Below, piece after piece: positions 26,701 through 29,640 of a stretch of 64,000 bases of DNA. The notes under the pieces are model-generated. The model had not been told where the DNA came from, ran no database searches, and saw only the letters and a list, made by a program, of their open reading frames with translations. The stretch's first letter is position 1. The number at the start of each line of letters is the position of its first letter. The DNA comes from a virus (taxonomy: Duplodnaviria; Heunggongvirae; Uroviricota; Caudoviricetes): the IMG/VR virus record IMGVR_UViG_3300037455_001096; one strand, given 5' to 3'. A program made the translations under genes and the position numbers.

Positions 26701-26922
26701 CCTACTTTTTCTTGAACGACTTTATGAGTCGGGCGACAACGAGGCACACGCCCGCAGTTATAACGCAGGCGACTATTGCTATGAGTACAGCAGCCCAACT
26801 GAAGCATAGGAAATAGGTCACGCAGGCGACTATCGCAACGACAATGAGGAAAATGATTATGCCGAGTGTTATCATATAAATAGTAATGTTTGAAACATAT
26901 TTATAACTTAATACCAAAAACT

Positions 26923-27540
26923 ATGAAAAATAAGAAAATGAAAATATTGAGTTGCTCCGTTTTCGGCGCACTTTATCTTTTGGTGAGCGTCATAAGTTTG
27001 ATTTGCTCCACATATTTTTTCAAACTCGCCCACAGTGGAATTATGAGTTGGGCTTTGGCAATCGGTTTCGAGTTGGGTGCTATGAGTTGCCTTCTTTCCA
27101 CTATGGTTTTGCCGAGGAACAAGCAGGGTCTTGTTTGGGTTATGTTCGTCATACTGACATTGTTTCAGTGTATGGGTAATATGTACGCGGCATACGTGAG
27201 CCTCGAAAACTATATGGATTGGATTGATATGTTCGGTCTGAACGATATGGAGGAAATCTCGCAGAAGCGTGTTCTTGCCGCAATATCGGGTATCATCCTG
27301 CCTCTCGTTGCCTTGGGTTTCATCAGAATAATGGCTGATATGCTGCAAAGCAACACCGAGGATTCCGTGGAGCAGGAGGCTTTGCCTATCGGAAATCCCG
27401 TTGAGGGGATTGCAGAACCCGAAGTCGTGGAAGAGCCTATACCCGAAGTCGTGGAAGAACCTATACCCGAAGTCGTGGAAAACCCCGAACCCGTAGAAGA
27501 GTCAGAAACCCCGCAGCCCGAATTGAAGTCAAAAAAATAG
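26923..27540 (+). CDS. membrane protein with a C-terminal acidic PEVVEEPI repeat region
   Basis: Several hydrophobic helices, then PEVVEEPIPEVVEEPIPEVVENPEPVEE. The track start at 26890 is TTG; ATG 26923 is preferred. Ends with an A7 tract before the TAG stop. Confidence 0.55.
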   Translation: MKNKKMKILSCSVFGALYLLVSVISLICSTYFFKLAHSGIMSWALAIGFELGAMSCLLSTMVLPRNKQGLVWVMFVILTLFQCMGNMYAAYVSLENYMDWIDMFGLNDMEEISQKRVLAAISGIILPLVALGFIRIMADMLQSNTEDSVEQEALPIGNPVEGIAEPEVVEEPIPEVVEEPIPEVVENPEPVEESETPQPELKSKK

Positions 27541-27560
27541 AGCCGCTGATTGAAGAACCC

Positions 27561-27851
27561 GTGACTGTCAGCGGTGAATCCCAAACGGGAGAAATGGTCT
27601 CGGAAGAAAGTGCTTCGGTCGAGCAGGTTTCTGATATAGTCGATGAATCCGAGCCGAAAGCGGAAGCAGAAGAGGTTTCCGTTATCGAAGAAATACCCGT
27701 TGAAAAGGCTGAATCCAAACAACCAATCGTACAAAATACGGAAATCAAGAAAGAAAAACAGAACAACCGCAAGCGCGAGCCGCAGGAATTCACAACTCCC
27801 GCCGAAAGGAAGATGGTGACGGGCGGCAACACGTTTTGGAAACACGCATAA
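27561..27851 (+). CDS. acidic protein; possibly the -1 frame continuation of 26923..27540
   Basis: GTG start in the track, but the same frame is open far upstream across the A7 tract. The acidic/Pro/Val composition continues that of the upstream gene. Confidence 0.4.
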   Translation: MTVSGESQTGEMVSEESASVEQVSDIVDESEPKAEAEEVSVIEEIPVEKAESKQPIVQNTEIKKEKQNNRKREPQEFTTPAERKMVTGGNTFWKHA

Positions 27852-27852
27852 T

Positions 27853-28164
27853 ATGGGAGGATATGTGTATCTGATATGCGACCCCGCGACCGACACATAC
27901 AAAATAGGTCGCACAAAAAACAGTGTGGAGAAGCGGCTGAAGCAGATTCAGACGGGCTGCTCCTCCGAGTTGTTCATAATGAACTATTACTATACCGAAT
28001 ACCCGAACCAACTTGAACAGATGCTGCACCGCAGGTTCAAAAGCAAGCAGCAGTTGAACGAATGGTTCAAATTGGAACACGATGACATATTCAGTTTCAC
28101 GGAGATATGCGAACACACAAACGATATAATAAAGGCTCTGCACACAGAACCCGAAATTTATTGA
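27853..28164 (+). CDS. T5orf172 (GIY-YIG-like) domain protein
   Basis: GYVYLICDPATDTYKIGRTKN...RLKQIQTG...LHRRFK...EWFKL. Confidence 0.65.
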   Translation: MGGYVYLICDPATDTYKIGRTKNSVEKRLKQIQTGCSSELFIMNYYYTEYPNQLEQMLHRRFKSKQQLNEWFKLEHDDIFSFTEICEHTNDIIKALHTEPEIY

Positions 28165-28602: not shown

Positions 28603-29640
28603 ATGCTTCTCGGACTTGACGACATCACGCTTATCCCCGCACAAATGTCAACTGTGCGTTCAAGGTCGGAATGCGACCCGTATTATCACGAAAAAAGAAC
28701 GATGAACGGGAACTACCTGCCTTTGTTTGCCGCGCCTATGAGTTCGCTCATTGACACGAAAAACTACAACGTGTTCGAGCGTTGCGGCATACACACGGTG
28801 ATTCCGCGCAATGTTCCCGTTGATGACAGAATCTCGCTGTGCAAATATACGTTCTGCGCATTCGGCTTGCGGGAAATCGAGGAAAAATTCATCAACGACA
28901 CGCCGCTTGGATTTTGCAAAATGAGCGGTTGGAACGATGCCTATGTATGCATCGACATTGCCAACGGGCATATGGAGTATCTCTACCAACTCTGTATGAA
29001 ACTCAAAGACAGATACCAAGACCGTATCCACATTATGACGGGCAATGTCGCCAACCCGAACACATACGCCTATATCTGCGATGTGTATAACGGTGTTGTC
29101 GATTATATCCGCTTGGGTATCGGCGGCGGCTCTTGCTGCACAACCTCGGCTAACACGGCAATCCACTATCCTATGGCTACGCTGATAGCGCGGTGCTATG
29201 ACGAGCGTGCTTCCCGAAACGGTGAGGGTTGCCCGAAAATCATCGCTGACGGCGGCTTCGATTCATTCGACAAGATTATAAAGGCTCTCGCCTTGGGTGC
29301 TGACTATGTTATGCTCGGCAGCGTAATTGCGAAATCGGAGGAAGCCTGCGGGCAGACCTATGATGAGGAAAACCTCCGTGGCAGAAGAACGTTTCGCGAT
29401 TACTACGGTATGTCAACCAAGAAAGCGCAGAAGGAATTGGGTAACGCTGAACTGAAAACCTCGGAGGGCATCACCCGAAAGGTTATGGTCGAATACCCGA
29501 TTTCAAAATGGGTTGACAACTTCACATCGTATCTGCGTTCCGCTATGTCCTATATGGACGTGCGAAGCATCGGCGAGTTTGTCGGCGGTGTCGATTATTC
29601 AAGCATTTCCCCAAACGCATTCAAATCATTTTACAAATAA
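28603..29640 (+). CDS. GMP reductase (GuaC)-like enzyme of the IMPDH/GMPR TIM-barrel family (345 aa)
   Basis: DDITLIPAQMSTVRSRSECD, LPLFAAPMSSL, CIDIANGH...GIGGGSCCTT (catalytic Cys loop), IIADGGF and ADYVMLGS align with E. coli GuaC. The length matches a CBS-less GMPR. Confidence 0.8.
   Translation: MLLGLDDITLIPAQMSTVRSRSECDPYYHEKRTMNGNYLPLFAAPMSSLIDTKNYNVFERCGIHTVIPRNVPVDDRISLCKYTFCAFGLREIEEKFINDTPLGFCKMSGWNDAYVCIDIANGHMEYLYQLCMKLKDRYQDRIHIMTGNVANPNTYAYICDVYNGVVDYIRLGIGGGSCCTTSANTAIHYPMATLIARCYDERASRNGEGCPKIIADGGFDSFDKIIKALALGADYVMLGSVIAKSEEACGQTYDEENLRGRRTFRDYYGMSTKKAQKELGNAELKTSEGITRKVMVEYPISKWVDNFTSYLRSAMSYMDVRSIGEFVGGVDYSSISPNAFKSFYK

Follow-up and report, generated by a model that had tools for sequence, protein, structure and literature searches.

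A conserved slippery heptamer and predicted hairpin in a membrane-protein gene of very large uncultivated phages: a probable site of programmed -1 ribosomal frameshifting

Insertion sequences (IS) of the IS3 family, such as IS911 with OrfA-OrfAB, and those of the IS cluster A_AAA_AAA_1 (Sharma et al. 2014, PMC4066793) carry an A-rich heptamer, A_AAA_AAG or A_AAA_AAA, with a stem-loop or pseudoknot beyond a short spacer; a -1 shift there joins an upstream open reading frame (ORF) to a downstream one that lacks its own start, yielding a short and a long product. The cluster with A_AAA_AAA is described as a proven case of stem-loop stimulated frameshifting (PMC4066793). In Escherichia coli dnaX, an A_AAA_AAG-type slippery sequence with a hairpin about 6 nt downstream yields tau and gamma, two isoforms that differ at the C terminus and are made in a set ratio. 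We describe here a locus of similar design in a 64,000-nt stretch of DNA from an uncultivated tailed phage (IMG/VR record IMGVR_UViG_3300037455_001096, Caudoviricetes; the whole stretch is called the window below). A run of seven A's (A7, 27531-27537) stands directly before the TAG stop of a 205-codon ORF (ORF1), and a 104-codon ORF (ORF2) continues in the -1 frame from the run. The two ORFs are very probably joined by recoding at A7, and comparison with related sequences suggests that the run is probably a conserved site of programmed -1 ribosomal frameshifting (PRF) inside a single phage gene.

The window site shares with the IS elements the A-rich heptamer, the short spacer, the downstream structure, the start-less downstream ORF, and the predicted pair of short and long products, but it lies in the gene of a phage membrane protein with four transmembrane (TM) helices rather than in a transposase gene, and its heptamer ends in A, not G. 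It shares with dnaX the type of heptamer, the spacing of the hairpin, and two C-terminally different isoforms, but the dnaX shift leads almost at once to a stop and gives the shorter product, whereas the shift here would give the longer; dnaX also has an upstream Shine-Dalgarno (SD) element, and a conserved SD-like stimulator upstream of the window heptamer, which the IS elements would also lead one to expect, was looked for and not seen, the upstream sequence not being conserved. Among phages, the tail assembly chaperones G/GT of lambda-like and other tailed phages and gene 10A/10B of T7 likewise use a conserved -1 shift to add a C-terminal extension in a fixed ratio. Typical G/GT sites resemble G_GGA_AAG, and many have no structure. 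The G/GT genes lie between the tail-tube and tape-measure genes and encode a soluble chaperone, whereas the window gene lies between the gene for a 1658-aa protein and a T5orf172 gene and encodes a membrane protein; we rejected membership in the tail chaperones on both grounds, gene position and the four-helix product.

In the zero frame the site reads ...GAA TTG AAG TCA AAA AAA TAG, so the heptamer takes in the last base of the TCA codon and both AAA codons, which is the right phase for tandem -1 slippage (X_XXY_YYZ); a ribosome that had slipped would continue with ATA GAG CCG CTG, giving ...KK-IEPLIEEPVTV..., as far as a stop at 27849-27851. The sequence thereby bears out the preliminary description of this locus, which had reported an A7 run with an immediate stop and a -1 frame that continues for about 100 codons. 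The same description pointed to a -1 frame that is open for a long way upstream of the run; this is real (44 codons), but it is an irrelevant by-product of composition, ranging from 7 to 44 codons among relatives. Nor is the arrangement rare: coding regions of the window hold 10 A7 runs, half of them (5/10) in the phase of the 27531-27537 run, and since neighboring genes overlap by ATGA, at least 100 open -1 codons lie beyond the stop of 22 of the 55 long ORFs. The verdict therefore rests on comparative data; what is unusual at the 27531 site, to judge from the sequences compared, is that the downstream frame has no start codon and that the site is conserved. Two further in-phase A7 runs on the minus strand (48232-48238 and 50792-50798) each lie 9 nt before the stop of an ORF (48223..50622 and 50783..51244, respectively), and we rejected both as frameshift sites since the next ORF has its own ATG (in one case at 48226, in an ATGA overlap); neither run is followed by a hairpin. 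The longest homopolymer in the window is a T11 at 62328-62338.

The DNA comparison drew on 13 distinct sequences, which fall into four sub-clades; the more than 20 contigs that carry them come from at least 18 samples and were built by several assemblers. The length of the run is exactly A7, and its phase the same, in 13/13; synonymous divergence (dS) between sub-clades in the N-domain of ORF1 is 0.38-2.24, near saturation, and the acidic tails upstream of the heptamer are unalignable between sub-clades. The 15 closest protein clusters all end at or just past ...KK. In these sequences the heptamer and the arms of the hairpin described below are invariant even at dS 0.4-2.2, a conservation that goes beyond neutral expectation. 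TAG adjoins the heptamer in 11 of the 13 variants; in L008 the stop comes one codon later (GCA TAA) and in L012 three codons later (CAG AGC CGC TGA), and both variants keep A7 and the -1 ORF despite the displaced stop. Adjacency of the stop is therefore not essential, and its position is not the conserved feature.

These data bear directly on two trivial explanations. Sequencing error, which the preliminary description had entertained as a cause, is refuted by the exact A7 in all 13 distinct sequences and on all of the more than 20 contigs, and it is very improbable that A7 is an error for a real A8, or that a true frameshift has left ORF2 as an untranslated relic. Homopolymers are error-prone and mutational hot spots, and in a sister clade the length of the run does vary (A10 versus A11, see below); but i) the exact A7 recurs in independent samples, under several assemblers, and in all four sub-clades; ii) no in-frame allele turned up in 5.8 billion proteins, where a search with an ORF2 profile returned no in-frame ORF1-ORF2 fusion and only ORF2 fragments with arbitrary starts, and where a fused query together with the ORF2 profile found no A8 or otherwise uninterrupted allele of the A7-type tail; and iii) ORF2 is open for 70-110 codons in all sub-clades, with a ratio of nonsynonymous to synonymous divergence (dN/dS) of 0.28-0.61 and frame-preserving indels, at near-saturated synonymous divergence. 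The displaced stop of L012 recalls a different possibility, namely that TAG is read as an amino acid (code 15) and ORF1 continues in the zero frame. Some gut phages do use code 15, and L012 has CAG (Gln) in place of TAG, superficially as if TAG encoded Gln; but zero-frame readthrough would add only Q-S-R before TGA and could not reach ORF2. Read with the standard code, the window is 88% coding; TAG terminates 17 of its 55 long ORFs, and it contains no suppressor tRNA. We consider stop-codon recoding extremely improbable.

The preliminary description had also raised the possibility of a downstream stimulatory structure, and a hairpin of 9-11 bp is predicted 4-6 nt past the heptamer in all four sub-clades (arms CCGCUGAUUG...CAGUCAGCGG). 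In the window it has 9 contiguous pairs, one mismatch, and one G-C pair, with a loop of 12-16 nt; it folds with a dG of -13.5 kcal/mol and a z score, computed against dinucleotide shuffles, of -3.3, while the other sub-clades give -12.4 to -18.4 kcal/mol and z scores of -2.8 to -3.75. No significant structure follows any of six control A7 runs in the window. In an alignment of 11 sequences, 92% of the helix cells pair, or 94% for the hairpin and stem 2 (below) together, against 30-60% in slid controls, and all substitutions in the hairpin and stem 2 keep pairing (AU to GU, UG to UA, UA to UG). Where residues are identical, the codons are identical too at 150 of 186 positions (0.81) in the hairpin region but at only 66 of 149 (0.44) in the C-terminal peptide, which is conserved to an equal degree; the frozen synonymous sites in the hairpin codons therefore point to constraint at the level of RNA. 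More speculatively, the loop sequence CCCGU may pair with a downstream ACGGG (stem 2), giving an H-type pseudoknot: no block 3' of the hairpin other than CGGG is invariant, and all 5 pairs are possible in every variant, the sole change being UA to UG, with no covariation. A scan of 27300-27900 against Rfam (E up to 10) returned no family. Nascent-chain stimulation by membrane insertion, as for alphavirus TF, is unlikely, the distance from the fourth TM helix to the slip site varying from about 45 to 95 residues among relatives.

ORF2 appears from its substitution pattern to be translated and under purifying selection in the -1 frame. Its dN/dS across sub-clades is that given above, and every indel is a multiple of three; the residues P88, A89, R91, K92, T95, G96, T99, W101, and K102 are invariant in the alignment, and synonymous codons vary normally in the C-terminal basic and aromatic motif to which they belong, which points to selection there at the level of the peptide. 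Only the long isoform would carry this motif (...PAERKMVTGGNTFWKHA). Conserved sequence begins exactly at the heptamer, as [IT]EPL[IV]E[EQ]PV..S (SITLIEQPV in L008), and codons 1-19, the most conserved part of ORF2, lie upstream of all candidate starts.

This last observation matters for the conventional reading of the locus as two genes, ORF2 being an independent small acidic protein made from its own start (GTG 27561 or later). Gene callers do annotate ORF2 separately (27561..27851 in the window, 96 aa from the GTG), and ATGA overlaps do leave the -1 frame open for at least 100 codons behind 22 of the 55 long ORFs of the window; but no start codon is conserved. The called GTG, codon 8, is GTA in L006 and L013, and it sits in the loop of the hairpin; in L006 there is no ATG, and the only GTG is codon 32; the first candidate start in L013 is a TTG at codon 59 of 84; and the start called in databases differs in every sub-clade, with products of 55-116 aa. 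Uninterrupted homologs, moreover, have one ORF at this place. We accordingly reject two separate genes as improbable, and homologs with two conserved genes and independent starts, which would have spoken for them, are not what we find.

In more distant homologs a single ORF, 234-398 aa long, has the same layout, consisting of a membrane anchor, an acidic linker, and a short, conserved C-terminal motif, GR[IV]WNxxxNAE[LV]G, and in the uninterrupted ones a T5orf172 gene follows directly, as it does at the window locus. The preliminary description had argued for a single protein from compositional continuity across the junction, and this continuity is confirmed: the net charge is -16 over the 60-aa tail of ORF1 (E 30%, P 18%, V 15%) and -15 over the first 75 aa of ORF2 (E 25%, V 13%), the last 29 aa of which are basic. 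Its conclusion is strengthened by the purifying selection on ORF2, the missing start, the conservation from the heptamer on, and the single ORFs of distant homologs. We considered whether the ORF2 tail (...TGGNTFWKHA) might be a homolog of the canonical motif and dropped the idea, a hidden Markov model (HMM) of 51 tails having given no match. A peptide predicted for the trans-frame product is IEPLIEEPVTVSG..., the Glu-C junction peptide would be LKSKKIE, and the predicted tryptic peptide IEPLIEEPVTVSGESQTGEMVSEESASVEQVSDIVDESEPK lies upstream of every candidate ORF2 start.

The main rival to ribosomal frameshifting is programmed transcriptional slippage, in which the host or phage RNA polymerase would add one A, and the resulting A8 mRNA would encode the same 309-aa protein (...SKKIEPL...), the hairpin being incidental or serving another purpose. 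The products of the two mechanisms would be identical in sequence, and protein data do not tell the two apart. Large phages often encode their own RNA polymerases, which may favor slippage, and relatives of the window clade also speak for it. In a sister clade with about 78% identity in the N-domain, the run is A10 in L011 (3649-3658), L037 (2446-2455), and L042 (3143-3152), and, to judge from ends of the form ...KKKMM[NH]V before the stop, apparently also in P0043, P0048, and P0079. The A10 genes are split, with the canonical C-terminal motif (GRVWNxxLNAEVG; HMM E about 1e-7) in the -1 frame behind the run, while L035 (896-906), which is near-identical to them, has A11 and a single ORF of 398 aa; no downstream structure is predicted in this A10/A11 clade (z +0.25). 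The A10/A11 polymorphism is likely to be caused by RNA-polymerase slippage or phase variation, and the arrangement of the clade is best explained by slippage as at the A11 of Citrobacter rodentium tssM, which encodes a membrane protein made as two length variants, both of them needed (PMC4256274). In tssM and in Thermus thermophilus dnaX (A9), an early stop is directly preceded by an A-run through which a C-terminal region encoded in another frame is regained, as would happen in the window, and these two genes are the best analogs for the sister clade (L011, L035, L037). In still more distant relatives, L045 (3214-3221) and L046 (1507-1514), with about 46% identity in the N-domain, the site reads TTA AAA AAA ACG...TAG, an A8 in the same phase, and the 21-codon -1 extension, NEQQVEPKVDFVSTWNSLLNK followed by a stop, contains WNSLLN, which by eye resembles the W-motif of the family; the motif HMM gave this extension no score, and no downstream structure is predicted. 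We tentatively regard the A8 as a further case of recoding.

What distinguishes the window clade from these cases of slippage is that its run has 7 A's, is invariant in length, and comes with a conserved downstream hairpin, for which slippage has no need. Efficient slippage by bacterial RNA polymerase is associated with runs of about 9 nt (PMC5009743), and A7 falls short of this length; slippage, if selected, would favor a longer run, but the run is exactly 7 in every member; and the hairpin is not yet transcribed while the polymerase is on the run, which leaves its conservation, its 4-6 nt spacing, and the frozen synonymous sites unexplained. The preliminary description had offered PRF and slippage side by side. 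The conserved hairpin 4-6 nt downstream favors the former, and slippage is in our estimation unlikely at the window site, though far from negligible.

We therefore favor, with moderate confidence, a ribosomal slip, because the locus combines the parts of a -1 PRF cassette: i) a heptamer in phase; ii) a fixed short spacer; iii) a conserved, stable hairpin with frozen synonymous sites; and iv) a start-less -1 ORF under selection. In the mechanism we propose, a ribosome translating ORF1 would arrive at A_AAA_AAA with two tRNA-Lys on AAA AAA, where the hairpin, its base 4-6 nt downstream and possibly part of a pseudoknot, would resist unwinding; a fraction of the ribosomes would slip back by one base, with perfect re-pairing since all seven bases are A, and would read ATA GAG CCG... 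for 104 codons to give a 309-aa protein, while ribosomes that had not slipped would stop at once on TAG and release a 205-aa protein. Both products would have the four-helix membrane anchor and an acidic disordered tether, to which the long form would add the rest of the tether and the C-terminal motif, and the site would set the ratio of motif-less to motif-bearing isoforms. We infer that both isoforms are made and that both are used.

Several points weigh against ribosomal frameshifting at this site. The bare pattern of an A7 run with an open -1 frame is within chance for the genome of the window. There are no compensatory double substitutions (0) in the hairpin, because its arms vary too little, and its conservation could come in part from selection on the peptide EPLIEQPV.VSG. 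The fusion appears to restore the canonical protein in overall architecture only, without demonstrable homology of the motif. The longer A-runs of the sister clade, which lack the hairpin, probably represent another kind of A-run slippage in the family. Finally, A_AAA_AAA is much less shift-prone in E. coli than A_AAA_AAG (PMC5009743).

Table 1. Features of the frameshift gene and of its surroundings (positions in the window; hairpin, pseudoknot, and isoforms are predictions)
Feature	Position	Strand	Remarks
Hydrophobic ORF, 71 aa	26702-26917	-	Directly upstream of the frameshift gene; sub-threshold match to Pfam Phage_holin_3_6, E 0.006
ORF1, zero frame, 205 aa (short isoform)	26923..27540	+	N-domain with four TM helices and disordered acidic tail; ends at the TAG after the heptamer
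Slippery heptamer A_AAA_AAA	27531..27537	+	Zero-frame codons (TC)A AAA AAA
ORF2, -1 frame, 104 codons and stop	27537..27851	+	Joined to ORF1 would give the 309-aa long isoform (...ELKSKK-IEPLIEEPVTV...)
Zero-frame TAG stop	27538..27540	+	Directly after the heptamer; with it begins the 4-5 nt spacer
Predicted stimulatory hairpin	27542..27575	+	5' arm 27542-27552, 3' arm 27565-27575
Putative pseudoknot stem 2	27558..27589	+	Loop CCCGU (27558-27562) with ACGGG (27585-27589)
Conserved C-terminal basic/aromatic motif of ORF2	27786..27848	+	EFTTPAERKMVTGGNTFWKHA; clade consensus [FY]xxPAxRKxLTG..(R)T[FY]WK
T5orf172/MUG113 (GIY-YIG-like) gene	27853-28164	+	Syntenic in nearly all relatives
IMPDH/GMP-reductase-family gene	28603-29640	+	Syntenic in nearly all relatives

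The coordinates are collected in Table 1. ORF1 was called by the ORF finder as 26890..27540 from a TTG; homologs, of which a protein search found 367, begin at the ATG at 26923 or at 26938. Its N-domain (about residues 1-151) is a four-helix TM bundle, modeled by AlphaFold with a predicted local distance difference test score (pLDDT) of about 90 for residues 1-150, and purifying selection on it is very strong (dN/dS about 0.02-0.04; dN 0.01-0.05 at dS 0.4-2.2); the Glu/Pro/Val-rich acidic tail is predicted to be disordered (pLDDT <50). Neither ORF1 nor ORF2 has a match in Pfam or PHROGs, nor do 17 members of the family in Pfam with E up to 1, and a fold search of the Protein Data Bank with the ORF1 model gave no meaningful match. 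Foldseek against BFVD matched the ORF1 fold to unnamed phage transmembrane proteins (E 5e-8 to 6e-7) and to DUF2637 proteins (E 8e-4 and 2e-2, TM-score 0.45-0.51), helical bundles being folds that match easily. On the strength of the model, the fold of the N-domain seems to resemble those of uncharacterized phage transmembrane proteins, including the DUF2637 type. The four-TM proteins of that type, found in phages and actinobacteria, may share the predicted N-domain fold with the window protein, and they too carry variable C-terminal extensions, but there is no Pfam sequence match to DUF2637 (PF10935), and we know of no frameshift in that family. The positive-inside rule, applied to the model, would place the C-terminal tail in the cytoplasm.

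The window uses the standard code, has no tRNAs, and shows its phage character in tail-fiber and collagen-like proteins and in families found only in PHROGs. A blastn search with 2.9 kb against 50,697 GenBank phages returned no match, and a search of 185,579 bacterial and archaeal genomes yielded no relatives of the gene family. The IMG/VR and metagenome contigs that carry homologs reach 387-519 kb, and one of 413 kb has a 99% identical N-domain. Synteny is kept: a protein of 1600-1660 aa, a small minus-strand TM ORF, the frameshift gene, and T5orf172/MUG113 are followed further on by the IMPDH-like gene, in place of which L012 has a DNA methylase. A minus-strand ORF of 56-60 aa is called at the place equivalent to that of the 71-aa ORF in L003, L008, L014, and L067.

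Genes of the TnpB or IS605 OrfB type (domains HTH_OrfB_IS605, OrfB_IS605, and Cas12f1-like_TNB) adjoin the frameshift gene in L003 (4215-5171), L006 (805-1947), L067 (4230-5504, minus strand), and L011 (372-1577, minus strand); their positions differ, and none lies at the equivalent place in the window. The neighborhood looks like an insertion hot spot. Elsewhere in the window, a 732-aa phage protein (52576-54774, minus strand) combines PGA_cap (poly-gamma-glutamate capsule synthesis, E 5e-53) with MATCAP (microtubule-associated tyrosine carboxypeptidase, E 2e-10), a pairing unusual for a phage.

For annotation, our reading means that where every related assembly has two 'hypothetical proteins' there is a single gene with two products, and that the downstream calls from arbitrary GTG or TTG starts are wrong. 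The mechanism itself is already well known, and the locus offers a new example, not a new mechanism. For recoding biology, a well-conserved, structure-associated -1 site in a membrane protein of very large uncultivated phages (relatives on contigs of 387-413 kb) joins the short list of phage frameshifts outside the tail-chaperone and capsid genes, and the A10/A11 sister clade, which lacks the hairpin, provides a natural comparison of ribosomal with polymerase slippage in one protein family.

We wish to stress that the family could hold more than one solution. It is possible, although we find it doubtful, that A-run recoding has evolved more than once in the disordered linker of this protein: as A7 with a hairpin (PRF), as A10/A11 (slippage or phase variation), and perhaps as A8. 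If so, recoding at an A-run would arise repeatedly where a fixed ratio of the motif-less anchor to the full-length form is functionally required, and the logic of that ratio would be like that of the short and long TssM variants or of holin/antiholin pairs, here in a membrane device of phages of about 400 kb.

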